From positions 3,782,001-3,846,000 of the forward strand of contig NC_089432.1 of NCBI RefSeq assembly GCF_026210795.1: DNA of 64,000 bases, read 5' to 3'. The stretch is from Rhizophagus irregularis (lineage: Eukaryota). This document shows, one piece after another, positions 176 through 64,000 of this stretch; position 1 is the stretch's first letter, and every line of letters starts with the position of its first letter. Under the pieces are notes generated by a model. The model saw nothing but the letters and a program-made list of their open reading frames with translations. It was not told the origin of the DNA and ran no database searches. Both the position numbers and the translations under genes were made by a program.

Positions 176-871
176 GTTAATACGAAATTGCAATACATCT
201 TCAATACTGTGATTGCGTTGTTTGATACATTGACAATATCATAAATATGGCTTTTTTTTATATTAAAATTTTCTAAGTATTATTTTTTCATTTTCATAAT
301 ATTGATGTTGAATATACGACTACAATGCTTATAATTGCATAGTAACGATGATGATGCTATATTATACTGAATAATCAATTGTTTTATTGCGCAGATATTT
401 ATACTTAAGTATCAGCTAATGTAAGACAAAAAAACTTAATAATAATTTCTTAAAATATTTCTGAATGCCATTTGTTTTTTTTATTATTTTATATTCTCCC
501 TATAGGCACTAATGGATATACATATCAAAAATCAAATTTATTTTACAGTATGTCAAGCAGGAAAAAAAAATCAAATTTCAAGGAAAAGCCCCTTATTTAT
601 ATGAATTATGTATCACGTGATTAACGTGCAAACCAGCCCCGTTTTTTTTTAAACTTTAACAAACCTTTTTCCTTTCTCAATTTCCCTTCCCCGTCTTTTT
701 CTCTTCATCTTGTTTCACTCTCTCTAATAAAAATCTTTAGCAGAACGTTTAGCAACATTTTGAAATTTTCCTTATTAGACAAAAATCATTACATTATGCA
801 ATGAAAATTAAGAGTTCATAACGATTTTTTTTTTAAAAAAGAAATAAGTATATTATAACTTAAATGACAAA

Positions 872-978
872 ATAACTTCGGTAATAAAATGGATTGAGAA
901 AAATCTAGAGAATGAGTATATTCATTATTTTAAATATGATGAATTTAAAATCGATGAAGAAGAAATTGGTAGAGGAAG
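872..978 (+). pseudogene. 5' fragment of a TKL-type protein kinase
   Basis: Reads WIEKNLENEYIHYFKYDEFKIDEEEIGRG, similar to the N-terminus/Gly-loop of the kinases at 31300 and 36985 (WIEEAVDKE...IGTGGFG). No further kinase sequence follows. Confidence 0.65.
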
Positions 979-984
979 GGGTCC

Positions 985-1500
985 GGAAAGATTTTTTTTC
1001 TTTTTTTTCATCTTTATTTTTTAATAAACGATTCTAATGGTTCATTTTTTTTCTTTCTTTAGATGGTTCTTTCAAGTTACTTTGGGAGACATTTTGGTAA
1101 AGTTTTTTATTTATTTCTTCCATCTTTTAACAAACGGTTCCTAACAGTTCATTTCTTTCTCTTTTTAGGCGGTTCTTTTGTATTTCTTGTGGTAAGTTAA
1201 ATTTTTTTTCTTTCTTTTTTTTATTTAACAAAACGTTAACTGGTGGTTAACTAAAATATTTTCTTGTCTTTTTCTTTTTTTTAGATGGTCAGGCCTTTGG
1301 ACGTGTGAAATTTCCAACGGTTGGTTTCTTTTACTTTTTTAAATTCTTTTGAATTAAATTTTTTTATTTTGGTAAGATGTTAACTATCATTTCATTTTCT
1401 TTCTTTGTTTTTAGACAGGTCAGGCCTTTGGATGTGTGAAATTTTCAACGGCCACGCACGTTATACTAGAAAGGTATGATGGCAGAGGAATTGTTGCGAA
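985..1500 (+). other. Intron/micro-exon array A (putative spliced non-coding transcript)
   Basis: Repeated polypyrimidine-TAG acceptors (~1062, 1168, 1284, 1413) and GTAAAG/GTAAGT/GTAAGA donors (~1096, 1192, 1372), with CTAAC/CTAAT branch sites and ~23-35-nt exons. Confidence 0.6.
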
Positions 1501-6149: not shown

Positions 6150-7280
6150 AAGGGAGCCTCCTACAAAAATTCTACACGTTTAAGGACTTCAAAAAGCAAT
6201 CTGTCCAATAACAAGAAGGTTTGAAGAAGCTGAGATCTAAAAAAAAAATAAAATAAACATTAAAAATGTTTCTAATTAAAGAAAACAATAAAAAGTAAGT
6301 TTTGCAAAGAAACTTACCGTCTCAAATCTATCAAAGCCCTTCTATAACTACAAAAAAAAAGTAAAAAGTAAGGATGTTTCCAAACATAACTTACTATTTC
6401 AAGATTCCAATACCCTATTCCGCTATTCGAAACTTTACAGAACCTATAAGTAAATAATTTTTCGCGATGAGGGAGCATTTTAAGTTCTTGTATCCGCTCT
6501 TCTGTATCCAGAATAAAAGTCAAATTTTCGCACTGAAGCCTCACATGTCAAAAAGTCTGGACATCTGAGAAGTATTGAAATGTAGAACCTAGAAAAAGAC
6601 ATGACTGTTTAAAAAAAGAAAAAAGATGATGAAACGTTAGTTAAACGTTTCGTTAAATAAAAATGAAAAAAATTTAACTTACCGCAAGAAATACAAAAGA
6701 ACCGCCTAAAAAGATAAAGAAATGGACTGTTAGGAACCGTTTGTTAAAAAATGTAAGAAATAAATAAAAAATTTTACCAAATGTCTTCCAAAGTAACTTG
6801 AAAGAACTGAACCATCTAAAGAAAGAAAAAAATGAACCATTAGAACCGTTCATTAAAAAAATAAAGATGAAAAAAAATGAAAAAAATCTTACCAGAATCC
6901 TGATATCCCTTTTTCTACTTATTTCTTCTTCATCAATTTAAATTCATCATATTTAAAATAACGAATATACTCATTCTCTAGCTTTTTCTCAATCCATTTT
7001 TTTACCGAAGTCATTTTGTCATTTAAGTTATAATATACTTATTTTTTTTTTAAGAAAAAAAATTTCATCATTATGAACTCTTAATTTTCATTGCATAATG
7101 CAATGATTTTGTCTAATAAAGAAAATATCAAAATGTTGCTGCTAAAGATTTTATTAAACTGAAGAAGGTGAAACAAAGAGGAAGAGAAAAGAAGGGTGAG
7201 ATTGTGAGAAAGGAAAAAGGTTTAAAAAAAAAAGTGGCTGATCTGTTAAAATTGTCACATTAATCACGTGATACATAATT
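6150..7280 (-). other. Inverted paralog of 603-1290: E-box promoter-like region, kinase 5' fragment (7014-6905) and micro-exon array C
   Basis: Reverse complement aligns with 603-1290. ATG at 7014 gives MTSVKKWIEKKLENEYIRYFKYDEFK. Donors at ~6890, 6776, 6680, 6315. Confidence 0.75.
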
Positions 7281-13448: not shown

Positions 13449-13630
13449 GATTACTTAAATTTTCTTGTAATCAGATTTTTATTAAAATAATTATCTTTTA
13501 TAAGAAAAATACAACAACCACAAAAGATTTATTTTGTTTCATCTTCGTATTAATTTTATTAATTTGCAAATCTAGAAATCTAGAATCTATATCATCATGC
13601 TATACATCAATCATGTTAGAAGAAAATCAT

Positions 13631-15097: not shown

Positions 15098-15590
15098 TTA
15101 TAAAAAACTCCAAAAGTCAGGTACAGCAGAAGAATTATCAAAAGCAACTGAACAGGCGTATGGTTTTGTTTGTTCATGATGTCCAATTAAAATTCCAATA
15201 GCGTATGGTATTGTCAATTCTGGTGTAGTGCATTTCTGCGTTATAGAAAATGCTTTTCCGGCTTTAATCGGACAAGTAACTCCAGGCATATCCACAAAAT
15301 GGGTATCTCCTATTAGTTTTTTCGCGACAACATCGACGAATGCAATCCCAAGCCAATCTCCAGCGACAATATCTTTTTCATTGTTCCTTTAATGTCAAAC
15401 GTTTCTTCTGTGTTAGGAACGACAGGATCAGCCGATCAGGTGTCATTTTTATATTGAGTCCCACTACATCTGGTGGCAAATTGGGACATGGTTGAAATTA
15501 AGTTTCTCTTTTTTCAAGTTCAAGTGGTGCTGCATTGACCGCAAAAAGCGTAGCAAATAAAAGGAATGCCAAAATAAAAATTCGACTCAT
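15098..15590 (-). pseudogene. ML-domain pseudogene, tandem paralog of 12957-13448
   Basis: Same ATG and signal peptide; CAA>TAA at codon 31 (15498-15500) plus indels near 15380-15440. Confidence 0.9.
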
Positions 15591-33398: not shown

Positions 33399-33947
33399 TA
33401 GGGTTGGATCGGTCCTAGCAAAGACCGGTCCTGTATCAGTCTTGGGACCAGTCTAAGTCTGGACCGGACCGGGACCGACTATATAAAATTTGTTATCTAA
33501 TATAATTATATAAAAATGATAAATTATATATTATTAATAAAGTTTCATTTTGAAATATCAAAATTCTCAAATATCAATATCATTTGATTTCTCATTGATG
33601 CGTTAAAGTACGAGAAACAAAATTTTTTCGTATATGCAATTATTCTGTGTTACATGATCAGCATCCATTACAATTTTTTTTCATATTCGATAGTTGTATA
33701 AGGTTTTAAAATTTTATCCAGTATTTTTACTCTTAAACTTTAAGATTTTATTTGGGTAATACTTAGTTTACAATGAAAACAAAGGTAATAAATAATAAAT
33801 TAATGTCATAATTTTAGTGCGACCTGCATTTCATTATCTTGTTGACAACCCAAGAATACCGCTGTTATAAATAAGATAATTTAAAAACATTAAGGACTGG
33901 TCAAAAGACCAGTCCGGTCCGGTCCGGTCCGGACTAATCCAACTCTA
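33399..33947. mobile_element. hAT-type MITE with 8-bp TSD, nested in an older small foldback element (~33385-34075)
   Basis: ATTGCTAA|TAGGGTTGGAT...ATCCAACTCTA|ATTGCTAA; subterminal ggacc/ggtcc repeats. Confidence 0.9.
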
Positions 33948-34215
33948 ATTGCTAAACATCGCCTGGCCCTTACTGCATTAGGATGGCATTTTTAGCGGAG
34001 TTACATTCATATTATTAATTCTGCCCAAGTTCCATCCTAATGCTGGTAAAGGCGATGATCGCCCAGGATGTTCATAATAATAAATACATTTTTTTTTTGC
34101 GCGATTAAATTAGACGATTATAGACGTGTATTAAAATTAATAAAAACATTGTTTACAATTCTGAAAATTAATTTTATTAATGTAAAAAGGTAAATATATT
34201 AAAAAAGTTTTCCTG

Positions 34216-34379
34216 CCCTATAAAAAAGGTTTGTGCTAAATTTGTGCCAAACGGGCTAATCATACAACATTTATTCGAAATTTGTACTAAAAAATAATAT
34301 AAAATTCGAACAAATTCTAAACAAATATCGTATGATTAACCCATTTGGCACAAATTTAGCACAAACTCTTTTTATAGGG
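34216..34379. mobile_element. Foldback MITE with CCCTATAAAAA TIRs
   Basis: Near-perfect ~70-bp arms; same terminus as 13631; absent from the paralogous flank near 28000. Confidence 0.85.
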
Positions 34380-34600
34380 CAAAGTGAAATTTATAATCAC
34401 ACAATAATAAGTAAGAATATTTCATCATTATTAAACCTTTTATATATTAAATATATTTGAAAACGATCATGCATTTGAATCTTAAAAGTGGCGAATTATA
34501 ATGATGGATGCAAATTTATTTAAGAATAAAAGAAAATATATCTGATATATAAAAATAATTTTTTAGAAAAAAATAAATATACAAAAAAATTTTATTAAAA

Positions 34601-36985: not shown

Positions 36986-37769
36986 TTTGATATTATCAAA
37001 CGTAACGTATTGAATAATAATAAGTTAACAGTAAAGTTAGAGAAAATGAATTGTTAAGGTTTCTATTTTATAATTTTTTTTCCCTCCATAATAGTCGCAC
37101 AACGTACAGCGTGATTAGTGTTACCAAACCAAAAGGACAATCAGTTGATACCACATGGTACCGCAGATTTATACGACTTTTTTAGGATCAGTCATCCCGT
37201 CCTTGCTTCTAAAAATAGATTTTATTTGTCACTACCATCACACCCATTCGCGTTTCTAGGACAAGTTTTTAGCCAAAATCCTATTTGTAACACAATTAGT
37301 CATCACTGTGTTGTTTTCCACGGTCACGGGTTGGGACGGGTTGGGACTTGTTTAATTAGTAAAATCTATTTTTATAAGCGGCTGCAAGCTATTACAAAAG
37401 GATTATGATTATTTATTATTAGAATTGTACAACTTTTTTCATAGAAAGAAACGATAAAAAATTTTATCCGTAATTTCTGTATAAACTCCATGAATATGAA
37501 ACATTTATAGATTAGATTATAAAGGAAAAAAAAAAAAATTTCGGTTTTAAATTTCATTAATTGACATTGGATTAACCACATATTGGAACTTACACATGGC
37601 CAACAGTCGTTTCATATTACACAATTCAATTTATTTATATGGAGACTATTCTAAACGTCAGAGACAATAATTTTTTTTTTTAAAAAAAAAAAATTCTAGA
37701 GATTTTCTTCTCGTTTCTTTCCATAAATTAAGAAAGTTTTCGATTTCCAGATTAGAGAATTTCCAGTCA

Positions 37770-38240: not shown

Positions 38241-39121
38241 CAGTTATTTGTTATTAAAATCACCAAATTCGAATTCCCAGTTTATACGTGCACAAAATTG
38301 TAAAACGTAATACAAAATTAATATAAATAGACTATCATTTGGACTAAATAATAAGTTGAGTAAAAATCTACATTTACGAAACTTCAATTATTCGACTCCA
38401 GTTCACTAACAAAAAGCCCATTCCTCACCTACATAGTTATTTTAGTGTGTATCATTAGAAAGTAAGTATGCTTTAATAAAACAAAATGTAAATAGAAAAT
38501 TTATATAGTCATAATAGCTATGAATATTTTTAAAAGTATTTTAAAACTCAATGAATATTGTTTAAAAAATTTTTTTTATGATAATTTTTTATAAAATTGT
38601 CTATTTTTTATATTTTTCAAGTCATATAACTAATTCACGTTTCACATTATAGGAACTTTACACTCAAACTGATTGTAAAACATACTTTCAATTTACAAAA
38701 AAAAATTACAGAAATTATTGTGCAAAGTGAGATCCCATATTAAACGGATATTATCAATATTATCAAATCATATTTATTATATTTTTGGCTTAAAAGAAGT
38801 ATTTATCAAATTATTGTATAGCAAAACCAAATAAAAATTTTTTTAATGTTCGTCCCCAAACTTACTACGCCTTATGTAATGCTTTGTGTAACAAAAATAA
38901 ATTAACACGTTGATTAATCACCTCTGGTGAATTAATTATTCTTATTTAATATATATATATATACTACATATTACTTTCTAGTTTCTACCTTTTTTTAAGT
39001 TTTTTTTTTGTAATCCAAACGCATATATTCGTTTGTATTATAAACAATAACCCCTTTTTAAAAAAAATTCGTTTTTTTTCTTATTTTTAACAAATATATA
39101 CATAAATACACACGAAAAAAA

Positions 39122-41381
39122 ATGACCTCAACTTCCGTACGGTAAGTAACTGTAAATCAAAAAAATCAAATAATTCCTTTACTATTTTAATCTTTATTCC
39201 TATTTCTTTCACATTCTTGTTTTCTTCTACCTTTTCTCCCTACCGTTTTTCGTTTCTCACTCATTTTCCATTCCGTCCTCTCTAGAGTTGCTTTGAGAGT
39301 AAGACCACTCAATAACAAAGAAATACTACAAAATTGTAGTGAATGTTTAACAATAATACCTGACGCACCACAAATACTCATTGGAACCGATAAATCATTT
39401 ACATTTGATTATGTATTCCCATCGGATACTGAACAAGAAGAAATATTTCATGATTGTGCAAGTCCGCTAATAGATAAACTCATGGAAGGGTGAGTACACA
39501 GGAAAAAAAAATTCGGCCTCACGTCGCACGCGCAAGAAGAATCAAATTTATATCAAAAAAAAAATTTTTTATCAAATTCGGATTTTTTTTGATGATATCA
39601 CTTTTATTTTATCGTGTCATTGTTAAATTATTATTTATTATTATAATTTAATTATTTTAGTTATAATGTCACAATCTTAGCATATGGGTAAGTAAATAAC
39701 ATAATTAACAATTATTATCTAAATTAATTTGCATGTTTATTATTTATTTATTATTTATTATTCAACCCTTCCCCCCCTCCCTACTTTTTTAGTCAAACTG
39801 GTAGTGGTAAAACATATAGTATGGGTACTGCTTTATATGGTTCAGATATTCCACCCGAATATCAAGGTATGTTTGTCCCTTGCATCATTTTTTAAAATGA
39901 TTATCAAAAGTTGATCATATGTTTATCAAATTAATGACGTCATTTATTATTAGGTATCATTCCACGTGCTATAAGTAAATTATTTGCCGACCTTAACGAA
40001 CGAAAAGAAAAAAATCCTTCCTATGAATTTGAAGTTTATGTATCATTCTTAGAATTATATAATGAAGATTTTATAGACTTACTTAATAAAAAAGGAAAGA
40101 GTGATTTAATGATAAGAGAAGATGCAAATAGTCAAATATATTGGGCTGGTGTAAAAGAAGTTCAAGTTTCGGATTCAGATGAACTCTTAGGGTATGTTTC
40201 TATTATGTTTATAATATGTTATATAAAAATATAAATATAATTTATCAATTTTACTATCAAAATTTTTTAGACAATTACAAAAGGGTTCACTGTGTCGAAC
40301 TGTCGCTTCAACAGATATGAATATGGTATCTTCAAGATCACATGCTATATTTTCCGTAATACTGAAACAAACAAGAGTAGAAAATTTAAAAGAAAATAAA
40401 GAAAATGATGCTCCACCACCTGAAACTTCAACCACTTCAAAAAGAAAGAGTAAACAAAAATTATTAACATCAAAAGTAACTTCAAAATTTCATTTCGTAG
40501 ATTTGGCTGGTTCTGAAAGGGTAATGTATTTAATATATATATATATTTCTTCCTTAATATTCTTGATTATTTTCTTAATATTAATTTTTTTTTTTTACAT
40601 AAATAGTTAAAGAGAACTAACGCCGTAGGTGATAGAGCAAAAGAAGGAATAGCAATTAATGGTGGTTTACTAGCCCTTGGTAATGTAATTAGTGCTCTTG
40701 GTGATGAATCAAGAAAGGTCACTCATATTCCTTATAGAGATTCAAAATTAACACGTTTATTACAAGATTCACTTGGTGGTAATAGTCAAACTCTTATGTT
40801 GGCTTGTGTTTCACCAGCTGATTCTAATTTTATGGAAACCTTAAGTACACTAAAATATGCTAATCGTGCTCGTAATATTAAGAATAAAGTTAGTGTTAAT
40901 GAAAGTTATGGTGGTAATTCTATTGAAATAAATCAATTACGTGGTCAAATAAGTAGATTAAAGATGGAGATTCAAACTTTACGAGCTGGTGGTTGTAATG
41001 AAGAAACAAGTCGTAAACATGAAGAAGAAATTGAGAGTCTTAAAAATGAATTAGGAATGACAAAATGGAAACTTAAAAATGTTGAACAAGAACTTATCAC
41101 TACAAAAGCTGAAAGGAACACTCTTTTAATGGAAATTAGTTTTAATGATCAAGATCTTTCAGATGCTGATCGTGAACATAGGATTAAAACTCATAATATC
41201 GTTCAAGGTTATGAATCAGAAATTCAAGATTTTAAAAATCAAATTTCTGAACTTTTAGCTGCACAAGCTTTTCAACATCTAAGTAAATCTTCTTTGGCTG
41301 GAACAACAACAGGAAGAGAGAAAGGTCATATCAAATTCTCCGATCCTCATATTTATTCATCTGATGAAGATATTCATAATC

Positions 41382-41416
<35 letters not shown>

Positions 41417-44230
41417 GAGAATAGTGAGAAGAAAGGTAAAAAGAAGAAGAAACGTACTTCAATAAGAGCTGATGGTCACTTCCCAGTTTCTGATGAAACT
41501 TCTACTACTAAAATCTCACCTGTTGGCCCTTCCTCATCTCATCATCAACTTGAACATGTCGTAAATGATCAAAGTTTGGAAGAAGCTAAATCCTTATTCA
41601 CACCATATGATGAAGACGAAGAAAATATTGAAGAAGAAGATGGTGAAGATGGTGAAAATGTTGATGGTGAATCATTCAAATTTACTCGAAAATTGAGAAG
41701 GCGTAGCAAGACAAGAGATAAGCTTGAAAAGGCCAAGGAACAACTCAGACAAAGTTACATGATAATAAAGAATGGAGGTTCTTTACATGATGATCCTATT
41801 TTAAGTCAATTAATAAAACAACCTTCATCAACTAGGAGAACTAAGAGTGAAAATTATATTGATCAAATGATTCGCAATCATCAAAAAGAAAAAAGAAGAT
41901 CAAGCAGTGTATCTTTCAGTGAAATTCAAATCATTGAAGTACCAGAATGGCAAGAATCTAATCCACAACCACCACAACCTACTCGTCGTACTTCAAATTC
42001 AGGTTGTTCTGTTAGTTTCTCCGATCGACCAATTTCTTCTGGTTCAACTGAATATTCTCAAGATAGCACTGATTGCTCATCTCAACAACAACAACAAAAT
42101 GTTATTGCTCTTACCCGTATGTTACATCAAATTCAAGCTGATATTGCTGTTAAAGAACAACTCGTTTCACAATTGGAACGTGCTGAACAAGAATATACTT
42201 ATATGAGAGCTCAATATGAACAAAAATTGGCTGATATGCAAGAAGCTATAATTACCTTACAACAAGAAAGAAATTCTGCTGTTAAACGTGCTCAAAATGC
42301 TAATACTGGCGTTAGTACTCGTGATAAGAATTCAATCCTTGTCGAACTTAAATCTCGTTATGAACACAAGATGAAACGTTTAATCCAAGAAATTGGTGAA
42401 CTTCGTAGAAAATATAATGAAGCTACTCAATCTACAACCACGTCAAAGAATCAAAATGAAACAATGCTCAAGAGTATGCGTGCTCAAATTGAACAACTAA
42501 AAAGTGAAAAGATGCGAGCGATGAAGCGTATGAAGGATGAAGCTGAACGTGTCCGTGAAATGACTGAACGTAATCAACGTGAAATTCAAAATCTTCGTCG
42601 TAAAGAAAAATCTGCTCAAGAACAAAAGAAACGTTTTGAAAGAACTAGTGAAATGCAAAAAATCATGCTTGAAAAGAGACAGGAAGAAGTTTTACAAACA
42701 AATAGTAAACTTAAATCAGTTATGGCCTTACTCAAACGAACCACTACTCCAAAGTCAATCACCAAGGCTATCCGTAATCACAAACGACAATCAATATCTA
42801 ATGATGAAGACAGAAAGGAATCGAGACGATCCTCCGATGATATTAGTCCTATCTATGATGAAGTATTTGCCAGTGGTTATGATAAGAAAAAACTTCTTGA
42901 TGAAGCAATCTATAAATATATTAGTGGTCGTCAAACATTGACAATGATGGATGAATGGATCGTTAAAAGAAATAATTTACAAGAAGAGAAGAATGAATTA
43001 CTTGAAAAACGTGAAAAAATAATTACTAGCGAAATTGGAAATGAGTTAGGAGGAGATGCTCAAGCATTAGATGATAAGATTGGGATGATCACCTCGGAAA
43101 TTTCTTATATTACTGCCAAGATTCATTCTTTACAATCAAGTATTGCAGCCGAACAAGAAGAAAAAGCTGCTGAAAATAGCAAAGAATCTGAAGATAAATC
43201 ACGAAAGAATAGTATCAAGTCAAGTAAAATTAAAAAGAAACTTTCTTTCCTCTTACCAGAAAATGCCACACCTGAAGCATCATATGACGTTGCTGTTCGC
43301 ATTTTACGAAATTTGGATGAATTTGAAAGTTATACAATATTAGAATCCTTCTTTAAGGATATTGTTGATCTTAAAACTGGAGATTGGTCTCGACAAATGA
43401 CCTTGGAACAACAAGAAAAGACAATTATTGATTTAAGAAAAACTTTATTGGCCATGCGAAGAGCTGCAGTTCTTACAACAAGTGAATATGAAAAGAAAAA
43501 CAGAGAACTTGAAGAAGCTTTACGTTTCGGTGGAGGATCATTAAGTCCATCAACTCCGGAAAAGAGAGAATTACAGATGGATGATATTGAAAATAGTACT
43601 TCCAATGCCATTTCCTTATTTGATCATAAATTAGATCAAGCTTATGCAGAAGTCGAAGCTGAAATATCAGGAACTTTTGGTCAAATGGGATCATTATCAA
43701 GACGTAATTCATACTTCTTTGATGATGATGCAGCTTACTTCTCTTCTTCACCATTATCTGCAAGTCCATTGAATACTGGTAATAATAGAACAAGTTTCTC
43801 TTCAAGACCACCAATACCTCCCGGTTGGTTAAATCTTCAACCGCGTGAAAAAGTACTCGAACAAACTAATGAAACAACGCCGGACGTTCCAACAAATCCA
43901 AGAAGAAAAGATTCTGGTAATAGTGAATCTAGTGGTGATAACAACAATAATACAAAGAGAAGGAGTTCAAATGGTCGAAGATTAAAGAGACCATCTAATG
44001 GTCCATCTACACCATCAACACCAAAACCATCAACACCAAAAGATGAAAATATTTCTCCTTTAGAACGTACAAGGTCCATTGGTCAACCTTTGGAACGTAC
44101 CAGATCCAGTAATCAACATTTAGAACGCGCCAGAGCTGGTGTCCAACTTTCAAGTTCACGACGAAGTTCGCTTCGTGATGGGTCAACAATTCTTGCACAT
44201 AGTCGACAAAGTAGTTCAACAAGCACTTAG
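39122..44230 (+). CDS. Kinesin-4 family (KIF4/KIF21/KIF27-like) motor protein, 7 exons
   Basis: Exons ~39122-39141, 39286-39489, 39661-39687, 39793-39867, 39954-40191, 40271-40520, 40607-44230. Motifs [19 protein letters not shown] (P-loop), [38 protein letters not shown]; long coiled coil. Confidence 0.95.
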
Positions 44231-49512: not shown

Positions 49513-51172
49513 CACTCCCGCGCCAAAAGTTTAGGACCACCCAATAAATTTTTAAAAAAATGGTTTTTTTTAACCAACTAATATTTTAATAAACTATAAA
49601 AAGTAATTTATAATTACTTTAATGGATAAAGAACAATTTTTTATTATTAGTTAAAAATGTAAAAATAAATTATCGGTAATTTAGTTATCCAGCATTTCGC
49701 AAAGTCACGTGACTAATGTTTACATCACGTGATTTTTTGTGATGAAGGAAAAAAATTCGTAAAATGAATAAAATATAAAAACTTTTTATTAAACCTCTTG
49801 TTATGTATAATAAAAAAAAAAATTCTGGTCCATAACTTCACAAAATTAAAAGTTAAGATAATGAAAAAAAATTTTAATAAAAAATGCTTAATTTTTGGTA
49901 AAAATGTAAACAAAAAAACCAATTTACCGAAACTAACTTTATAAAAATATAATTAAAACATTCCTCAATATCTTGTGGGATATCCACGAGCTTTTATAAC
50001 TGCCTCAATTCTACGGTTCATGCTCTCCACAAGCTTTTGGTAGACCTCACATGAAATTTCTGACCAACATTCTTGAAGAAGTTCCTCCAATTCTCCTAAA
50101 TTTTTAGGATGATTTTGCTTTGCTCTTATACGCCTCTCAAGCTCATCCCAAAGATGCTCAATGGGATTGAAAGGTTCGGCTCTGCCCCGGCCATGATAGC
50201 AAATTTATTCCCATTTCTTCACAGAACTCTCTTGTTCTTGCACTTGTATGAATCGGTGCATTATCTTGTTGGAACAAATAATCACCATTTTCTTCTTCAA
50301 ATCTTTCCAAGAAAGGGATCACGTGATAGCCAAGTATCTCTTCTATATACCTTTGACTATTAACTCGACCATCAATTCTTACCAAAGGGCCCAATCCAAA
50401 CCATGTAAAACACCCCCACATCATGACTCCACCTCCACCATGCTTCATGGTTGGAACAAGGTAATTAATATCATATTTTTCTTTTGAAGACGCCAAACCC
50501 GAATTTTTCCATCATTCTGGAACATAGTAAATCGAGACTCATCACTCCATACAATTTTTTTCCAATCATTTATAGTCCATAAGCGTCTTTCACGAGCCCA
50601 ATTTAAGCGTATTTTTCGATTACACTCACTAACACAGGGTTTTCTTAAGGCTGCACAACTATTATATCCCATTCCATACAATGTTCGTTGTATGGTGCGC
50701 CTACCTACATCATTTCCAGTGGATTCCATAAAAATTTTTCTAATTTTTTCTTCAGGTTCACGTCGGTTTTTATTAATAATAGCTTTAAGATGCCGTTTAT
50801 CCCGTTCAGTTAGTTTCTTAGGACAACCACTTCTGGGAGCGACAGTAACAGCACCAGTTTCACGATATTTTGCTATTATATTATGAATTGTAGTTTTTCC
50901 ATAGCCTGTTTTATTTGAAATAGCTCTTTCTGAATCACCGGCTTCATAAAAACCGATAACTTTTCCACGTTCAAAATCCGTTAGTTCTCTTTTTTTAACC
51001 ATTTTGCTTTTAAACAAAAAAAAAAGCTGCTAAAATTTTGTGTAATTATCATTACTAATCAATAAATAACGTAAATAGTTTTTATTTATGTTACACAAAT
51101 GCGTAATTATTACTGTTTAGGTGTTGTTTATGGCGATCATAAAGGTGGTCCTAAACTTTTGGCGCGGGAGTG
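49513..51172 (-). mobile_element. Full-length Tc1 (DD34E-type) transposon
   Basis: TA|CACTCCCGCGCCAAAAGTTTAGGACCACC ... exact 29-bp reverse complement|TA; encloses a transposase. Confidence 0.97.
49965..51002 (-). pseudogene. Tc1 transposase with two frameshifts
   Basis: HTH region, WSDESRF, KHGGGGVMMWG, FQQDNAPIH, WPGQS..NPIEHLW, GYPTRY*; frame breaks near 50480 and 50175. Confidence 0.92.
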
Positions 51173-51407: not shown

Positions 51408-54400
51408 CACTGGTCAAAATCAATTCTATCGGGTACATATCAGGCACCTATATATCGGTGGCTAATCAGATAAATATCGGGTATTTTTACATATCGGGTA
51501 CCCGATAGCTAAGCTATTAGTCACTGATATTGTATATCGGGCATTGATCTATCTTACACATATCAGGTACCCGATATGTAAATTTTAATACGTAAGATTT
51601 TTATTTTGTACAACGTACTGTATTATATATAATCCGTTTCAACTAAAATTTTTTATTTAAATTCATTTTTTAGATAATTTTTATAAATAATTTTCTAAGA
51701 AATTTTAAAAGTCCATTTGAATAATATTTAATAGGAATTTTATTTAAGAAACTTTTAGATAGATTTTTTTGAGAAATTTTTTAAGAGTCCGTTTGGAAAA
51801 ATTATTTTTTTAACTAAGAGGATCATTTAAAGCATTTTTGATAGAGAATTTTCTAAAGATTTGTTTGGAGAGATTATTTTTGAGAATTTTTTAACTAAAG
51901 GGACCGTTTGGAACATTTTTTGATAGAGAATTTTCTAAGAATTCATTTGGGAAATGGTTTTTTGAGAATTTTTTTAACTAAAAGGATCATTTGGGCATTT
52001 TTTGATTGAGAATTTTCTAAGAGTTCGTTTAGGGAAATTATTTTTTGAATTTTTTAATTAAGGGGATCGTTTAGGGCATTTTTTGATTGAGAATTTTCTA
52101 AGAGTTCGTTTAGAGAGATTATTTTTGAGAATTTTTTAACCAAAGGGACCGTTGGAATATTTTTTGATAGAGAATTTTTTTGATAGAGAATTTTCTAAAA
52201 GTTTGTTTGGAAAAATTATTTTTTGAGAATTTTTTAACTGAAGGTATCATTTGATAGAGAAATTTCTAAGAGTTCGTTTAGGAAAATTATTTTTTGTATT
52301 TTTTAATTAAGGGGATCGCTTAGGACATTTTTGATAGATAATTTTCTAATAATTCGTTTGGAGAGATTGTTTTTGAGAATTTTTTAATTAAAGGGAACGT
52401 TTGGAACATTTTTGATAGAGAATTTTCTAAGAATTTGTTTGGGAAATAGGGTTTCAAGAATTTTTTAACTAAAAAGATCATTTAGGGCATTTTTTGATTG
52501 AGAATTTTCTAAGAGTTCGTTTAGGGAAATTATTTTTTGAATTTTTTAATTAAGGGGATCGTTTAGGGCATTTTTTGATTGAGAATTTTCTGAGTTCGTT
52601 TAGGGAAATTATTTTTTGAATTTTTTAATTAAGGGGATCGTTTAGGGCATTTTTTGATTGAGAATTTTCTAAGAGTTCATTTAGGGAGATTATTTTTGAG
52701 AATTTTTTAACCAAAGGGACCATTGGAACATTTTTTGATAGAGAATTTTCTAAGAGTTTGTTTGGAAAAATTATTTTTTGAGAATTTTTTAACTGAAGGT
52801 ATCATTTGATAGAGAAATTTCTAAAAGTTCATTTAGGAAAATTATTTTTTGTATTTTTTAATTAAAGGGATCGCTTAGGGCATTTTTGATAAAGAATTTT
52901 CTAATGATTCGTTTGGAGAGATTGTTTTTGAGAATTTTTTAACTAAAGGGAATGTTTGGAACATTTTTGATAGAGAATTTTCTAAGAATTCGTTTAGAAA
53001 ATGGTTTTTCGAGAATTTTTTAACTAAAAGGATTATTTAGGGCATTTTTTGATTGAGAATTTTCTAAGAGTTCGTTTAGGGAAATTATTTTTTGTATTTT
53101 TTAATTAAGGGGATTGTTTAGGGCATTTTTTGATAGAGAATTTTCTAAGGATTCATTTGGAGAGATTATTTTTGAGAATTTTTAAGAGTTTGTTTGGGAA
53201 ATGGTTTTTTGAGAATTTTTTAACTTAAAGGATCATTTAGAGCATTTTTGATTGAGAATTTTCTAAGAATTCGTTTAGGGAGATTATTTTTTGTATTTTT
53301 TAATTAAGGGGATCGCTTAGGGTATTTTTGATAGAGAATTTTCTAAGAATTTGTTTGGAAAATGGTTTTTTGAGAATTTTTTAACTAAAAGGATCATTTA
53401 GGGCATTTTTGATAGAGAATTTTCTAAGAGTTCGTTTGGGGAAATTATTTTTTGAATTTTTTAATTAAGGGGATCGTTTAGGGCATTTTTTGATAGAGAA
53501 TTTTCTAATGATTCGTTTGGAGAGATTATTTTTGAGAATTTTTAAGAGTTTGTTTGGGAAATGGTTTTTTGAGAATTTTTTAACTTAAAGGATCATTTAG
53601 AGCATTTTTGATTGAGAATTTTCTAAGAGTTCGTTTAGGGAGATTATTTTTTGTATTTTTTAATTAAGGGGATCGCTTAGGGCATTTTTGATAGAGAATT
53701 TTCTAATGATTCATTTGAAGAGATTGTTTTTGAGAATTTTTTAACTAAAGGGAACGTTTGGAACATTTTTGATAGAGAATTTTCTAAGAATTTGTTTGGG
53801 AAATGGTTTTTTGAGAATTTTTTAACTAAAAGGATCATTTAGGGCATTTTTGATAGAGAATTTTCTAAGAGTTCGTTTGGAGAAATTATTTTTTGAATTT
53901 TTTAATTAAGGGGATCGTTTAGGGCATTTTTTGATAGAGAATTTTCTAATGATTCGTTTGGAGAGATTATTTTTGAGAATTTTTAAGAGTTTGTTTGGGA
54001 AATGGTTTTTTGAGAATTTTTTAACTTAAAGAATCATTTAAAGCATTTTTGATTGAGAATTTTCTAAGAGTTCGTTTAGGGAGATTATTTTTTGTATTTT
54101 TTAATTAAGGGGATCGCTTAGGGCATTTTTGATAGAGAATTTTCTAATGATTCGTTTGGAGAGATTGTTTTTGAGAATTTTTTAACTAAAGGGAACGTTT
54201 GGAATATTTTTGATAGAGAATTTTCTAAGAATTTGTTTGGGAAATGGTTTTTTAAGAATTTTTTAACTAAAAGGATCATTTAGGGCATTTTTGATAGAGA
54301 ATTTTCTAAGAGTTCGTTTGGGGAAATTATTTTTTGTATTTTTTAATTAAGGGGATCACTTAGGGCATTTTTGATAGAAAATTTTCTAATGATTCGTTTG

Positions 54401-56691
54401 AAGAGATTGTTTTTGGGAATTTTTTAACTAAAGGGAACGTTTGGAACATTTTTGATAGAAAATTTTAAGAATTTGTTTGGGAAATAGTTTTTTGAGAATT
54501 TTTTAACTAAAGGATAATTTAGGGTATTTTTGATAGAGAATTTTCTAAGAGTTCGTTTAGGGAAATTATTTTTTGTATTTTTTAATTAAGGAGATCGTTT
54601 AAGGCATTTTTTGATTGAGAATTTTCTAAGAGTTCGTTTAGGGAAATTATTTTTGTATTTTTTAATTAAGGGGATCGCTTAGGGCATTTTTGATAGAGAA
54701 TTTTCTAATGATTCATTTGGAGAGATTGTTTTTGAGAATTTTTTAACTAAAGGGAACGTTTGGAACATTTTTGATAGAGAATTTTCTAAGAATTTGTTTG
54801 GGAAATGGTTTTTCGAAAATTTTTTAACTAAAAGGATTATTTAGGGCATTTTTTGATTGAGAATTTTCTAAGAGTTCGTTTAGGGAAATTATTTTTTGAA
54901 TTTTTTAATTAAGGGGATCGTTTAGGGCATTTTTTGATAGAGAATTTTCTAAGGATTCGTTTGGAAAGATTATTTTTGAGAATTTTTTAACTAAAGGGAA
55001 CGTTTGGAACATTTTTGATAGTGAATTTTCTAAGAGTTCGTTTGGGAAATAGTTTTTTGAGAATTTTTTAATTAAAAGGATCATTTTTAGGGCATTTTTT
55101 GATAGAGAATTTTCTAAGGATTCATTTGGGGAGATTATTTTGAGAATTTTTTAACCAAGGGATCGTTTGAAACATTTTTGAGAGAATTTTCTAAGAGTTC
55201 GTTTGGGGAGATTATTTTTAAGAATTTTTTAACCAAAGGGATCGTTTGGGACATTTTTTGACAGAAAATTTCTAGGAGTTCATTTGGGGAAATTATTTTT
55301 TGGGATTTTTTTAACTAAAGGGATCATTTAGGACATTTTATTTTTAATAAAGAAATTTCTAAGAATTCATTTGGAAGATTTTTTGAGATTTTTTTAATAA
55401 ATCTTCTAAGGGTTCATTTGAAGAAATTTTTTAAAAAAGTTTTTTAACTAGAAGGGTCATTTCAAATATTTTTTTGATGAGAAATTTTCTAAAGGTTCAT
55501 TTGGAAAGATTTTTTTTTTTGATAATTTTTTTAATCGAAAGGGTCATTTGGATTGAGAAATTTTTGTTTTACGACGTAATTTTACCAAATTTAATTATAA
55601 ATGTATTCAGGCTATAAAATAACATGTGGTAAGTTACATTACGTAATATTGTTATCATGTGATCACATGATTTAAATATTTACATTTCGCATTTTTGTTT
55701 ATCTTATTAAAACCTTTTCTTCGTTCTCAATTTTTTTTTACTTAAAAACACAATTTTTTATCTATTTAATATATCCAGAAATACATATTTTTATTATTTG
55801 TTATATCTAGAAATGCATAAAAAGGTATATATTACTAATATTTCTTTTCTTTATTAATGTTTTTCTACCATTTTTTTTTCGTTTCTTTCTTTTCTTTTAC
55901 TAATACTCCTACTAATATATTTTTTATTATTTTTTTCTACTATATTAACATTTTTACTATTTAATATTTTCTATTAATATTATATTACTACTGATATACG
56001 TTCTCTTTCTACTAACATTTTTTATTCTACTAACTTTTTCTTTCTGCTAATGTTTCTACTAATATTTTCTATATTTATATATCTATACTAATATTTTTTA
56101 ATAACATTCTCTTTTCTCTTACTAATATATTTATCATTAATACTTCTTTTAAATAATCAAACAGGTATAAGCAAATAAGTGATTTTATTTTTATGCTACT
56201 TTTAGTAGAAGTTATATATTATATATATTTATTCAAGTATTCAAGTATAATTAGTATAATTGTTTTTTTTTAATTAAAAAGTGTAAATAAATTTAAATTG
56301 TAATAAAGTTTTGAATTAAAATTAAAAAAAATATATAAATTATGATTGCATTTTATAATTTTTTTGCCTGAATTAAATTATAAATCTACTAGTATTAATA
56401 CGAAATCATTATCCTATATCTATCCGTCTGATATCTGTATGATATCTGTATGATATCTATATGATATATATCATAATATATCGGGTACCCAATAAGTCTA
56501 TTTAACTACCCGATATGTGTAAGATGTATATGTGATATGTACATGATGTGTCACCGGTTTTCTACATTTCTACTACACATATCGGGTACCTGATATGTGT
56601 AGCATTGTTAAATATCATACACATATATCACATATATTGTACACATATCAGGTACCCGATAGGTACCCGATAGTATTAATTTTGACCAGTG
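51408..56691. mobile_element. 5.3-kb non-autonomous CACTA/EnSpm-type element containing a satellite
   Basis: TAC|CACTGGTCAAAAT...ATTTTGACCAGTG|TAC (13-bp TIR, 3-bp TSD); subterminal atatcgggtacc repeats at both ends. Confidence 0.88.
51690..55550. repeat. Satellite array, ~40/80-bp unit with higher-order variants
   Basis: gatagagaattttctaagagttcgtttagggaaattattttttgaattttttaattaaggggatcgtttagggcattttt and variants repeated for ~3.9 kb, degenerate at both edges. Confidence 0.95.
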
Positions 56692-57795: not shown

Positions 57796-58327
57796 CACAG
57801 GTCGAAAAGTGAAAAATCAGGCATCAATCAGTCACCAATCGGTCACCAATCAGGTACCTGATTGGTGACCGATTGGTGCCTGATTGGCATTTTCGCCAAA
57901 TACCAAATCACCAATCAGGCAGTTTGCTAACTTTTGATCCAGTGATCAGAAAAAGATGAAATATAGCTCATTGGAATCGTCTCAACAAGACGAATCTAAT
58001 GGTAGTAAAATCGCATCTTTAGGATTAATACTTGATGAGAAATTAAGTAAAATATAAAAATGAAAATGTATTATTTATATTTTATTTAATATTTTATTAA
58101 CTATCAATCCTAGAGATGCGATTTTACTACCATTAGATTCGTCTTGTTGAGACGATTCCAATGAGCTATATTTCATCTTTTTCTGATCACTGGATCAAAA
58201 GTTAGTAAACTGCCTGATTGGTGACTCGTATTTCTTAAACGAAAATATAATCAGGCACCAATCAGTCACCAATCAGCTACCTGATTGGTGACCGATTGGT
58301 GCCTGATTTTTCACTTTTTGACCTGTG
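57796..58327. mobile_element. CACTA-type (CACAG) foldback MITE with 3-bp TSD
   Basis: TTC|CACAGGTCGAAAAGTGAAAAATCAGGCA...TGCCTGATTTTTCACTTTTTGACCTGTG|TTC; nearly the whole element is one inverted repeat. Confidence 0.92.
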
Positions 58328-58526
58328 TTCGTTAGAATGTTATTTTTTTTCGACACTTTTTTTGCAAAATGTACATTTGTTGACATTTTCTAGAAAGATG
58401 TAACATTTTATCAAAAAATTAGATCATTTACTAAAAAAATGCGACATTATTTACTGAATATTGAATAATTTGATATAATAATCGGATAATTTCGCAAAAA
58501 AAAAAAAATTATTTATTATGGTAAAT

Positions 58527-60247
58527 TTAAATGTGAAATTTTCTATTTAACGGTAAAATGGCCAAGTATTCAGTACGTTTGTATTTAAATTTTGCTGGAA
58601 CAAATCTACCTAATATGTGATGAACTGGAATTATACTATTAACCGAAGAATTAAAAAACTCCTTTTTCCAAAGTTCCGGATCATTCGTAAAATCATCAGA
58701 ATCTTCGCTGGAAAAAAAAAATCTGATGTTTGCAGTCGCAGCGGGTTTATACCAATTTACAAAAGCCAAATAATATTCCGTCAGACCATTTGGAAGATGA
58801 ACTGTATGTTTGAAATAGAATTGTACCTGGCCAGGATATGTGTCTATATCATTTTCACGTTGTTCTATAAAACGTGCTAAGATATAAGAGCTTCTAATAT
58901 ACCTTTTGGATAATATTGACCCAAAATATTCTGCACTGATGCGCAATCTGCCACATTGTGTGATATTTCCAGTTACAGCAATGTAATTTTCAGTTGATGA
59001 AGAAGGATCTAACCGTGGTCGGCTAAAATTATATTCTTCATAAGCGTGATTGTAGTAATCAACTAGTAAATCCAAAATATCATCCGGTAATATGACATTC
59101 AATTTTATCGGACTTAAAAGTTCTCCAGGATATTCTTCCGTTCCTGTTGCCCCGCCAGAAACCAGCTTTTCAGATATATCTAAAAATGCCTGTAATTCCT
59201 CACTTTCGAGAGATTCATTTTCGTTATCGTCAGTTGTATCATCATTTAAATCAAGTATTTGAAAAATGGCCTGATGATTTAGAGCCAATGTATTGAATCT
59301 TCGTTCAATTTGAGAACTCTGCATCATAAATCGCATAATTTCCGGTTCAATTTTTCGTCTACTATTAGGTAAACTCCCTGTATAATTGTAAAATCGTAAG
59401 TAATAATTCTGAATAATTTGAATAATATTATTGTAAATACCAACCAAGAATTCCATTCATCCTTTCAAAGGAGAAATACCAAAATGAGTAAAGAGGACCG
59501 TAATCTTTACAACATTTGTTCAAGTGTAATGAAAGATGTAAATTTGGTGTTATTGAAACTTCTCCGTAATTCGTTTTGATAAGTTTCAAAATTTCAATTA
59601 AATGTTCATGTGCGTCATCTAAATTTTTGATTGTAACAATCCTTCAGACTAATATAGAACAAGCTTGGCTGAAATGTACTAAGATTTTCCGATCTTCTTG
59701 GTCCAAAAAATCCCAAAGAACAACTCTGGCATAAATCAGGAAAAAATTTTTCCATTCGTTAGCCGTTAAATTAGAAAATCCTTCCCCAATATCTATTTTA
59801 TGAGGAATTCGACCGATTTCTGATGGTGGATGAATATTGTTCATGTTTTTTTGAATTTTCGTCAGATCATCCATATTTATTTTACCATGTCCTAACCAAA
59901 GTTGTTTTACGATAAATGATGCAATTCCTATAAATAAATTATGCATCGGGTCCACAGGTAAAAATCGTATCAGATCGAAATAAGACAAACGGAGCATTTC
60001 TGACCATCTCGCGTGATATTGCTTCGCATGTCTTTTTCTAGCTTCGTTGCTTTTACATTTTCTCCATTCCAAAGCCATTTCTCGATAACTATTCACGCTT
60101 TTAGCAACAAACCATTCATTAATAACATCCATGCCACTAAAATTTCTATTTCTTGCAACCTTTAAGCATCTGTGACAGCTTACATTGGCTGAATAATGGC
60201 CACATAATTTTCTAGCAGCTGGTATATCGCAGCAACAAGCAATTACT
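58527..60247 (-). pseudogene. EnSpm/CACTA-family transposase, 5'-interrupted, one in-frame stop, one intron
   Basis: CDIPAARKLCG, VDPMHNLFIG, LTANEWKNF, TPNLHLSLHL..DYGPLYSFWYFSFERMNGILG; TGA at 59644-59646; intron ~59444-59378; YPGQVQFYF..LAFVNWY tail. Confidence 0.9.
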
Positions 60248-61225
60248 CACAGGTCGAACAGATGTCATTGTCGCAAAATTTGCCTGGAATTTTTCTGGCA
60301 AATTGAGAATTATCCCGATAAATTGGGGTAAATTGTGTTACAATTTTGGGATAATGGAGGACTTACAATTTGGCAAATTTTGTCAAAATGGCAGAATTCT
60401 TACAGAATTCCTAATTCAAATGTTGAGAAATTTTTCAGTAAATTATCATTAATTGTGGGAAATTTTAGGTAAATTTTTAGTAATTTTATGTAAATTGTAG
60501 TGAATTTAGTCAAATTTTTAGTAATTTTATGTAAACGTAATGCAAATTGTGGTGAATTTAGTCAAATTTTTAGTAATTTTATGTAAACGTATTGTAAATT
60601 GTGTAAATTTTAGGCAAATTTTTAGTAATTTTATGTAAACGTAATGCAAATTGTAGTAAATTTAGTCAAATTTTTAGTAATTTTATGTAAACGTAATGCA
60701 AATTGTGGTGAATTTAGTCAAATTTTTAGTAATTTTATGCAAACGTAATGCAAATTGTGGTAAATTGTAGTGTATTTTTAGTAATGTTATATAAATTGTT
60801 GAAAATTTAGGTGAGTTTTTCAGCAATGTTGTGCAAACGTAATACAAATTGTGGAAAATTGTGGTGAATTTTGCATTTTTTCGGTAAATGTTAGCTAAAC
60901 TTTTGATAATTTAGTGAAATTTAGGATAATTTTGGACAATTGAGTGAAAAATGTTTTACTGATTTTGTACAATTGAGTGTAAACAGTATAAACACAACAT
61001 TTTCGGAGACAATTTAGTGAAATTTTGCAATAATTTCGGACAATTGAGTGAAATTTTGCAATAATTTCGGACAATTGAGTGAAATTTTGCAATAATTTCG
61101 GACAATTGAGTGAAATTTTGCAATAATTTCGGACAATTGAGTGAAATTTTGCAATAATTTCAGACAATTGAGTGAAATTTAGTAATAATTTTAAACAATT
61201 TAGTGCAAATACCATGACAATTTAA
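60248..61225. mobile_element. Partial CACAG-terminated element with tandem repeats (~59-bp at 60470-60880; 31-bp at 61008-61200)
   Basis: CACAGGTCGAA (same terminus as 57796) starts exactly where the transposase frame breaks; gacaattgagtgaaattttgcaataatttcg x ~5-6; other end not found. Confidence 0.65.
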
Positions 61226-61239
61226 AACACTGGTTTAAT

Positions 61240-63642
61240 AATTTTACATAATTTATTACAATATTATTTATTAATAAATGCACAATTATTATTTAACGAT
61301 GAGAATCTATATTAATCTATATTCATCAGATATCCAATAATCCATGGGTAATCCGCACATCTAATTCATTCATGTATCTCCGATGCCAAAGTAGAAGCTG
61401 GTAAAAACCTACAAAAAAGAAAGTAAAGAAACGTTAGTTAACGTTTCTTAAAAAAAAATTAATAAAAATTAAGTTTCACAACCAATGTTGCGAAACTTAC
61501 CGGTTCGTTTTGATTTCCATTATCCAAACGTCCGAAACCTACAAAAAGTAAAAAAGAAACGTTAGGTAATGTTTCTTTTAAAAAAAAAGAACAAAAATTA
61601 AGTTTCGCAATGTAACATTGCGAAACTTACCGGTCGTTTCATTCATTCTAACATCCGGAACCTACAAAAAGTAAAAAAGAAACGTTAATTAACATTTTTT
61701 TTAATAAAAAAAAACAAAAATTAAGTTTCGCAATGTAACATTGCGAAACTTACCGGTCATTTCATTCATTCTAACATCCGGAACCTACAAAAAGTAAAAA
61801 AGAAATGTTAGTTAACGTTTCTTTTAATAAAAAAACAAAAATTAAGTTTCGCAATGTAACATTGCGAAACTTACCGGTCATTTCATTCATTCTAACGTCC
61901 GGAACCTACAAAAAGTAAAAAAGAAACGTTAATATAAACGTTTCTTTTAATAAAAAAACAAAAATTAAGTTTCGCAATGTAACATTGCGAAACTTACCGG
62001 TCGTTTCATTCATTCTAACGTCCGGAACCTACAAAATTAAAAGAAAGAAACGTTTAGTATCGTTTCTTTAAAAAAAATTAATAAAAATTGTTTCGCAACA
62101 CAATGTTGCAAAACTTACCGGTTCGTTTCGAAGTTCATTATCCAAACGTCTGGAATCTACAAAAATTAAAAGAAAGAAACGTTTAGTATCGTTTCTTTAA
62201 AAAAAAATAATTAAAAAAATAAGTTTCGCAATACAATATTGCGAAACTCACCGGTTCGTTTCAATTTCTATTATCCAAACGTCCGGAACCTACAAAAAGT
62301 AAAAGAAACGTACGAAATAAAAGAAACGTACGTTAGTATCATTTCTTTAAAAAAAAACATAATTAAAATTAAGTTTCGCAACAATTGTTGCAAAACTTAC
62401 CGGTTCGTTTCGAGTTTCAAACGTCTGGAACCTACAAAAAAAAAGAAAGAAACGTTAGTTAACGTTTCTTTTAATAAAAAAAATCAATAAATTAAGTTTC
62501 GCAACGATTCGTTGCAAAACTCACCGGTTCATTTCATCCAAACGTCCGGAACCTACAAAAAGAAGGAAAGAAATGTTAGTTAACGTTTCTTTTAATAAAA
62601 AAAAAATTTAACAAAAAAAAGAAAATATTACCTTTCTTCCAAAGTCCGGGTCGTAATTTCGTCTGGCGTTCCTACAAAAAGAAGAAAGGAAACGTTAGAA
62701 ACGTTTCCTAAAAGAAATTAAAAAAAAGTAAGTTTTGAACATGAAACTTACCATTTCACTTTTCGAAGTTGAAGACCTACACAAAAGAAAAATAGGAAAC
62801 GTTAGAAACGTTTCCTTACAAAAAAAGAATTAAAAAAATTTTTTTTAAAAAAGTTTCGAAGCGAACGCTTCAAAACTTACCATTTTCGTTTCCTCGTTTC
62901 CTAAGTCAAAAATACCGAAAGACCTAAAAAAAAATAAAGGATCGTTAAAAACGATCCTTATAAAAGCAAAAAAAAAAAAAATTTATTTTAAAGTTTCAAA
63001 GCGAAACGCTTCGAAACTTACCATAATTTCAGTAGTCAAAACATCAAAAATCCTACAAAAAAGAAAGAAAGGAAACGTTAGAAACGTTTCCTTACAACAA
63101 AGAATTAAAAAAAAAATTTAAATTTAAAAAAGTTTCGAAGCGTTTCGCTTCGAAACTTACCATTGTTTTTCTGAAAGACGGTTCCGGGAAGGGGAAAGAG
63201 AATGGGGAAGGAGTGGGAGGAAAAAGGGAAGGGGAAGGGTGGAAGAAGAGGAAGGGGAGAAGAGGAGAGAAAGAGGGAAGGGAAGAGAGAAAGAGGGAAG
63301 GGGAAGGCGAGAGAAAAAGGGAAGGGAAGGGAAAGGAGAAAGAGGGAAGGGAGGAAGGTGAAAGAAAGAGGGAAGGGGAAGGTGAAAGAAAGAGAAAGGG
63401 GAAGGGGAAAGGGGAAGGAAAGAAAGAAAGGAAGAAAGAAAGAGGAAAGGGGAAGGTGAAAGAAAGAGGGAAGGGGAAAGGCGAAAGAAAGAAGAGGTAA
63501 AGGCCGTGAGAAAAAAAAAATTAAGCTTTTGCTAAAAAAGCTTAATTTTTTTTTTCGTTATACCGCAGCTGAAGCTGCAGTAATTATTAAGTAATATCAC
63601 GTGACGCACGTGATATATAATTTTATATAAATAGGGCTTTCC
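61240..63642 (-). ncRNA. Putative multi-exon non-coding transcription unit: 14 hairpin-bearing introns and 13 internal micro-exons (array D)
   Basis: Donors GTAAG/GTGAG/GTAAT at ~63160, 63021, 62880, 62751, 62631, 62524, 62400, 62251, 62118, 61997, 61874, 61753, 61630, 61500; branch-point-like sites and polypyrimidine-TAG acceptors; exons 25-43 nt. Transcription itself is not shown. Confidence 0.6.
63186..63500. repeat. GA-rich low-complexity tract
   Basis: gggaaggggaaggtgaaagaaaga-like units, almost purely purine on the + strand. Confidence 0.9.
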
Positions 63643-64000
63643 CCCGCCCCGGAATTTTTTTTTTTATTTTAATAATTTTAAATAGATGTATATATATGCT
63701 TATATATACATATATATATATCTATTAACTAATACTTTACGAAAAGCCCTTCCTCTGTAAACAGGTAGAGGCCATAAAGTACCTATAGGGGGAGAGCCAT
63801 TGCTGCTTCCTCCACCTGTTTATAGTGATAAAAAGAGGGAGTCTTCAGTGGTAAGGTTTAGTACTAAATTAAACATCATAACACATCGTGTTGATACATT
63901 GTTTATATTAACAATGTGATTTAATGTTAAATAATTCATTTAGAATATAAATATTATAAATTTAATAATGTTTGTAATTTACAAATAAATAAAAATAAAA

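Follow-up and report, generated by a model that had tools for sequence, protein, structure and literature searches.

An array of 14 predicted tandem introns with non-coding micro-exons beside a CACTA-type transposon end in Rhizophagus irregularis

Host genes of small nucleolar RNAs (snoRNAs), such as GAS5 and UHG, contain many introns and poorly conserved, stop-rich exons, and introners are families of similar, structured spliceosomal introns that are inserted singly in genes. In the accessible part of their description, the transposon-derived long non-coding RNAs (lncRNAs) of Blumeria hordei are fungal, transposon-associated and partly spliced, and have been proposed as RNAi precursors; they have 2.3 exons on average, less than 1.9% of them have more than five, and most run antisense over transposon genes (PMC10648671). 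In Cryptococcus neoformans, introns of transposon transcripts signal the production of small RNAs, and stalled spliceosomes can trigger siRNA (Dumesic 2013, as related in the accessible text of PMC6643885). The available sections of two further reports describe CACTA elements, the En/Spm tnpA region and soybean Tgmt*, with many small, erratically spliced exons that code for TnpA-like proteins (PMC2613891), and the micro-exon genes of Schistosoma mansoni, in which runs of very short exons coding for secreted proteins lie between long introns (PMC10526429). The locus described here resembles each of these systems in part, the Cryptococcus pathway by analogy. It is an array of intron-like units within a 64,000-nt stretch of Rhizophagus irregularis DNA (hereafter the window), and it is real, a member of a family and apparently undescribed. 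The window has 27% G+C and carries genes of kinesin, kinase/Sel1 and lipid-binding type, including a long kinesin gene and its broken partial duplicate (21301-23931 and 39100-44230, plus strand). Going by their translations, we take the genes at 29121-37024 to be tandem kinase-Sel1-type pairs and those at 12957-15388 to be tandem pairs encoding small secreted lipid-binding-type proteins.

On the minus strand, positions 63160-61409 hold 14 intron-like GT-AG units of 79-111 nt, each running from a GT donor through a T-rich spacer, a branch-like motif and a pyrimidine tract to TAG (GT..TAG in 14 of 14). Donors read GTAAGT in 11 units, GTGAGT in two and GTAATA in one, and predicted intron accounts for 1316 of the 1752 bases. 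The sequence features of U2-type introns, from the GT donor consensus and the branch motif to the pyrimidine tract and YAG, are all present on one strand, and splicing of the 14 units is predicted from sequence. Introns 1-5 (62553..63160; 63160-63053, 63021-62924, 62880-62777, 62751-62672 and 62631-62553) are separated by exons of 31, 43, 25 and 40 nt; the donor of intron 5 is weak and is not in a hairpin of the kind described below. Introns 6-14 (61409..62552; 62524-62432, 62400-62290, 62251-62157, 62118-62029, 61997-61906, 61874-61785, 61753-61662, 61630-61539 and 61500-61409) alternate with mutually related exons of 28-38 nt and, to judge by their likeness, are near copies from a recent tandem expansion. 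Across units 6-14, predicted splicing joins the exon ends into a short palindrome (AACCG joined to GTT). A first-pass annotation of the DNA had proposed 14 minus-strand introns and internal exons of 31, 43, 25, 40, 28, 31, 38, 38, 31, 31, 31, 31 and 38 nt, and both proved exact. The array is flanked by a predicted C/T-rich, low-complexity exon 1 with an ATG at the first donor (63161..63520, minus strand), opposite which a 153-aa frame had no Pfam match, and by a predicted last exon with an ATAGATT-rich, putative 3′ end (61300..61408, minus strand). CpG occurs at 2.6-fold expectation in the array and at about 1.0 in the neighbouring transposase, a contrast that is uninformative on methylation.

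None of the 13 internal exon lengths is divisible by three. The predicted spliced RNA from 63600 to 61230 measures 1055 nt and contains 27 ATGs, the longest ATG-initiated open reading frame (ORF) being 52 aa; when exon skipping is allowed, the best ORF over all 8192 paths reaches 71 aa. The ATG at the end of exon 1 opens a 3-codon ORF in the predicted product, in keeping with the earlier observation that it is soon stopped after splicing, and the exons are non-coding and out of frame, as had also been claimed. The lack of a coding frame, with random exon phases, is as in transposon-derived lncRNAs. A micro-exon gene, with frame-preserving exons, was rejected as a class for the locus. As a weak test, public proteins were searched with one 55-aa read-through frame; none of the 24 candidates reached E 10. 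Gene prediction is likely to mistake such arrays for orphan genes with many exons.

Beyond the features first annotated, the locus has two hairpins per intron, an upstream block, a downstream transposon end and two further units in the window. Thirteen of the 14 donors open a near-perfect stem (median 13 bp) that spans intron positions +3 to about +31, and a second stem (median 10 bp) surrounds the branch motif in nearly all introns. The combined motif of donor, hairpin and branch stem gave 4 matches, compared with 0.00 in 100 shuffles. At the donor and at the branch site, z was below -2 in 13 of the 14 array introns each, compared with 1 of 6 (donor) and 0 of 6 (branch) in a control of six kinesin introns placed by hand at approximate positions. 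In an alignment of the stems, 94.3% of cells pair, against 36-52% in slid controls. Double-sided changes were found in 19 cells versus 6.2 after shuffling (as many in 0 of 500 shuffles) and in 7 of 24 alignment pairs (33 of 500 shuffles). As the 14 units are related by descent and their covariation is thereby inflated, these figures do not amount to a probability. Across the window and its relatives, the stems are 97-99% Watson-Crick, with 13 internal G-U against 10 A-C oppositions; a ratio of 6:0 occurs only in the donor stems of the main array. Since G-U pairs are not favoured and the region upstream is equally palindromic, the hairpins may be DNA palindromes rather than RNA structures. Template switching is an established mechanism that maintains DNA palindromes. 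The splice signals of the array are consensus-strong rather than suboptimal.

Upstream of exon 1, a putative promoter at 63607..63641 (minus strand) consists of GAAAGCCC, a TATA-like stretch and ATCACGTG. The same block recurs at 583-619 (plus strand) before another intron unit (2 matches versus 0.00 in 100 shuffles). Around it, four back-to-back near-perfect palindromes, including a 22-bp stem, occupy 63505..63650 on the minus strand, a region that folds at -55.1 kcal/mol (z -9.4, equalled in 0 of 200 shuffles) and does so well on both strands; the folding stability of the DNA at 63745-63860 does not exceed that of its shuffles (z -1.3 and -1.6). The second unit (583..1450, plus strand) is partly decayed and comprises the promoter-like block, a C/T-rich exon and about four intron-like units, and a third, likewise partly decayed (6150..7280, minus strand), is 82.5% identical to it over 676 columns. 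Apart from the main array, a profile of the same family matched the window twice at 6618-6774, once at 1100-1169 and once, weakly, on the opposite strand within the array, and none of the 18 matches of the intron-unit profile within the window fell in host genes. In exon 1 of both decayed units, a short stretch resembles the N-terminus of a kinase family of the window (884-976, plus strand, 35% over 31 aa, E 0.008; 6928-6999, minus strand, 33% over 24 aa, E 0.019; both searched against the window), and may possibly represent a captured gene fragment.

A metagenome scan returned 15 loci, 13 of which are A+T-rich arrays that we sorted by eye into about six groups (L001/L005/L012, L004/L010, L007/L014/L015, L002/L003/L013, L006 and L009). 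The other two, L008 and L011, lie in DNA that looks coding and were rejected as matches by chance. Viral contigs and prokaryote genomes, scanned with the pattern, gave 0 matches each. The contig of L006, the array nearest to that of the window, joins it to bacterial-looking coding DNA (positions 1-330) and is probably an assembly chimera. Together with the two decayed units, these arrays form a dispersed family; a profile built from 46 introns of other loci recovered all 14 units of the main array. Branch-hairpin anchors were collected from 10 of the 13 array loci and two window stretches, with L005, L014 and L015 omitted as near duplicates and L004 and L010 partly redundant. In this set, a pyrimidine tract and YAG follow within 8-35 nt at 65 of 77 anchors on the sense strand and at 0 of 77 on the other, and GTRAGT precedes 44 of 77 versus 2 of 77, about ten of the 44 following from the construction of the search pattern. 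Automatically called exons at nine loci are mostly 20-45 nt long, and the 48 unique ones outside the main array, which include a few merged miscalls, divide 16/17/15 by length modulo three. After 8 calls judged wrong were removed, 48 unique related introns were retained. Between seven groups, mean alignment scores were 0.50 for introns (0.22 shuffled) and 0.17 for exons (0.05 shuffled). These values and the strand-specific anchors uphold the first-pass claim that splice signals are kept despite unrelated exons. Among 62 introns, donor -1 is G in 52, acceptor -5 is T in all 62 and acceptor -4 is G in 43, a tally that leaves out GT and AG themselves because they served for intron calling. In L002, L003 and L013, the donor hairpin is shifted: the end of the exon (TTTCGAAG) forms its 5′ arm, which places the GT atop the stem, and some introns of L002 and L003 keep their splice signals without hairpins. 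No precise intron loss between related loci was seen by eye; the one deletion that begins at a donor (L004 versus L010) does not span a full intron. ATAGATT-rich sequence, similar by eye to that of the main array, also follows the arrays of L004, L009 and L010. Because the introns and both hairpins are kept across arrays and the exons are not, the act of splicing is likely what matters.

A transposon end (60248..61250), with the array 1.15 kb to its inner side, consists of a terminal repeat that begins with CACAG at 60248 and of tandem subterminal-type repeats at 60270-61250. The terminal repeat starts CACAGGTC, like the paired ends at 57796 and 58327, and since its partner lies outside the window, we infer rather than observe that the array belongs to the CACAG element. 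Beyond this end, and outside the unit, is a broken, 5′-truncated CMC/EnSpm transposase (Transposase_21, PF02992; 58527..60246, minus strand), 95% identical to an R. irregularis protein; the alignment begins at residue 499 of 982, at position 60246, so that the first ~500 residues are missing. The CACAG end cuts the transposase off from the array, which is therefore not its leader. Among the relatives, L001/L005 have a CACTG end about 450 bp from the start of the array, with 91% identity over 100 nt to the element end at 51408; L004 and L010 share an end boundary with different flanks, and L009 terminates in similar subterminal repeats. In a Rhizophagus-like fungus, several family arrays thus appear to lie close to the termini of CMC/CACTA-type transposons. 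The arrays of L001 and L003 point at the 3′ end of an ORF on the other strand; these ORFs have no Pfam family and one homologue without a name, and that of L001 may be a CACTA accessory gene. Other mobile DNA lies close by. An element at 51408-56691 has CACTG-starting inverted ends, of the end family shared with L001/L005, and encloses a strongly GC-skewed satellite whose 81-bp unit occurs in about 44 copies (51806-55401); a small MITE-like element just past the transposase (57796-58327) has paired CACAG-starting ends and internal inverted repeats; and a Tc1/mariner-type transposase occupies two frames at 50158-51029 on the minus strand (Pfam HTH_Tnp_Tc3_2, E 8.7e-13).

Four RNA runs, chosen by species label and possibly from other strains, were mapped on 58300-63650 at 90% likeness; roughly 1/4 to 1/3 of every raw run was read. 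The poly(A) runs X21 and X22 gave 498 and 555 mapped reads, of which 40 and 24 matched at ≥99%; most were 90-99% alike, and 76-81% continued into unlike sequence (64-81% for the mapped reads in general), so the reads come mainly from paralogues, whose reads extend to 63199-63244 within predicted exon 1. Mean poly(A) depth over 61343-62416 was 9.0 (X21) and 11.5 (X22), part of it being poly(A) that matches T runs, compared with 0.0 and 0.03 over the transposase (59016-60089) and 3.4 and 4.4 over the subterminal repeats, which are of high copy number. In X2, which may be another strain and gives no copy number, contig depth summed to 376 for the array, 213 for the transposase and 9498 for the subterminal repeats. 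The contrast between the two sets of depths indicates that the array family is over-represented in poly(A) RNA relative to its neighbours. Reads spread alike over introns and exons, and both mate directions were equal, so that strand is not given. Of the transcript expected by the first-pass annotation, family poly(A) RNA over the array, mostly of paralogue origin, is a possible sign. None of 15 of the 37 joints was a minus-strand intron-end joint (CT..AC); exons of 25-43 nt are hard to map. The best-supported loose ends and joint other than poly(A), at 62507, 63052 and 63077-62475 (about 21-23 reads each in X21), belong to a paralogue unit that reads GA instead of GT at the donor and lacks the branch A, and their similar counts suggest a single transcript. 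If so, the most visible retained intron is a dead paralogue one, which suggests that intact introns are removed and so go unseen.

We consider it fairly probable that the array is non-coding and spliced and that its introns are under selection, and about half of that confidence extends to a role in stalling and silencing. The reading that we tentatively prefer is a transposon-borne, many-times-spliced non-coding RNA whose masked splice sites would slow spliceosomes and feed small-RNA control. CMC/CACTA-type elements likely carry the array as a transcription unit, in which the promoter-like block would drive a non-coding RNA, presumably made by Pol II from the minus strand of the array, across a filler exon and an intron ladder. 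The ladder would lengthen by unequal crossing-over of intron-plus-exon units, with the splice signals staying, presumably under selection, and the exons drifting within the sole constraint of 20-45 nt. By covering the sites where U1 and U2 pair, the stems would then slow assembly or stall spliceosomes, and the stalled complexes would mark the array RNA for small-RNA control of the element; this small-RNA link, drawn by analogy, is the least supported part. In the accessible texts of the respective papers, 41% of R. irregularis small-RNA loci are unannotated and lie nearer to transposons than by chance (PMC8647823), the fungus has about 40 AGO-like genes, and about 30% of arbuscular mycorrhizal fungal genomes consists of unclassified repeats (PMC11075540). 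A wider generalisation, possible and decidedly doubtful, is that Glomeromycotan DNA transposons carry a "splicing cassette" of promoter, filler exon 1 and up to 14 or more tandem introns with hairpin-locked donor and branch sites, which would serve only to load or stall spliceosomes and thereby direct the silencing of the element and of any gene fragments that its exon 1 has captured.

Much of the same evidence bears on a neutral, DNA-level origin, which we regard as unlikely, in which one ancestral intron and exon were amplified as a minisatellite inside transposons, with the splice signals as inherited passengers and the palindromes as binding sites of an element protein or products of template switching. 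Near-copy units 6-14, stems without G-U bias, an upstream region also full of palindromes, the existence of decayed units, conservation even at the non-essential acceptor -4 and the lack of a junction among 15 of 37 joints are in keeping with it. The minisatellite label, which the first-pass annotation had foreseen and disputed, accordingly fits the tandem copying of units 6-14; against the neutral reading stand strand-specific signals that persist across groups with unlike exons and in units without hairpins, exon lengths held mostly at 20-45 nt, one upstream block preceding two unrelated arrays, and family RNA enriched over neighbouring repeats. Quite unlikely, in our estimate, is that the array serves as camouflage, with dense, efficient introns giving the look of a host gene and keeping the element transcribed or unsilenced. 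Consensus-strong signals, family poly(A) RNA beside a silent transposase and the fit of the best-supported intron-bearing reads to a dead paralogue intron that has lost donor GT and branch A speak for such a role, but hairpins at the U1 and U2 sites would hinder efficient splicing. By analogy, human HUSH is countered by introns, although, in the accessible part of that study, protection was independent of splicing and spliced stuffer sequences gave none (PMC8770142).

Two further readings concern the products of the array. That it is a host transcript for intron-derived hairpin RNAs, akin to snoRNAs, mirtrons or stable introns, would explain why introns are kept over exons and why two stems covary; we hold it to be improbable. 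A Dicer-sized stem is about 22 bp. The stems here, with medians of 9-13 bp, are short for Dicer and include donor and branch sequences, some family introns have no hairpins, and none of 22 Rfam matches in 58000-64000 reached the gathering score, so that no C/D or H/ACA snoRNA was found in the introns either. The idea, raised when the array was first noticed, of stable intronic RNAs or small-RNA precursors from stems of ~10-13 bp that contain the splice signals is accordingly unlikely, and a mirtron or tailed mirtron was rejected on stem length (medians 13 bp at the donor and 10 bp at the branch). It is highly improbable that the array is a coding micro-exon gene or the 5′ leader of the downstream transposase: exons 8-14 are singly open in the first frame and array and transposase share a strand, but exon phase is random here and in relatives, the longest ORF is 52 aa (71 aa if exons may be skipped freely), the transposase is missing ~500 residues at its start and is separated from the array by a transposon end, RNA depth over it is zero, and the arrays of L001 and L003 face the 3′ end of an opposite-strand ORF.

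Returning to the transposon-borne, repeatedly spliced RNA that we prefer: if its introns are spliced, the array would be a natural case in which selection preserves splicing in place of a protein or of an RNA encoded in exons, and would tie splicing to transposon control in arbuscular mycorrhizal fungi. Were the cassette real, three units per 64 kb could make it a major unrecognised part of the unclassified repeats and unannotated small-RNA loci. In agreement with the first-pass remark that no described equivalent was known in these fungi, we found no description of such arrays in the literature covered, that is, mostly outside subscription journals and without the supplementary repeat and small-RNA tables, which may list them. 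The accessible parts of the R. irregularis genome and transposon papers PMC10234402, PMC11075540 and PMC8647823 make no mention of them, and in those of the latter two the word "intron" is absent from the main text. Nor did the literature covered yield a report of introners in Rhizophagus.

Compared with the systems set out above, the array departs from snoRNA host genes in having no snoRNA match, in consisting of mobile-element repeats and in the homology of its introns to one another. Unlike introners, its introns stand in tandem, and none occurs in host genes of the window, where no dispersed single copies were found. Whereas the exons of En/Spm and Tgmt* code for protein, those of the array are frameless and point towards an end or against the gene of the element, and whereas Schistosoma micro-exons are coding and separated by long introns, here they are non-coding and the introns measure 80-110 nt. 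The Cryptococcus introns lie in coding transposon transcripts; here, the introns form a dedicated non-coding array whose consensus signals are masked by stems. Nearest in kind, on the accessible part of their description and as far as our sequence comparison goes, are the transposon-derived, partly spliced lncRNAs of Blumeria (PMC10648671), from which the array differs in its 15 predicted exons, its tandem homologous introns, its two hairpins per intron and its place in non-coding element DNA.
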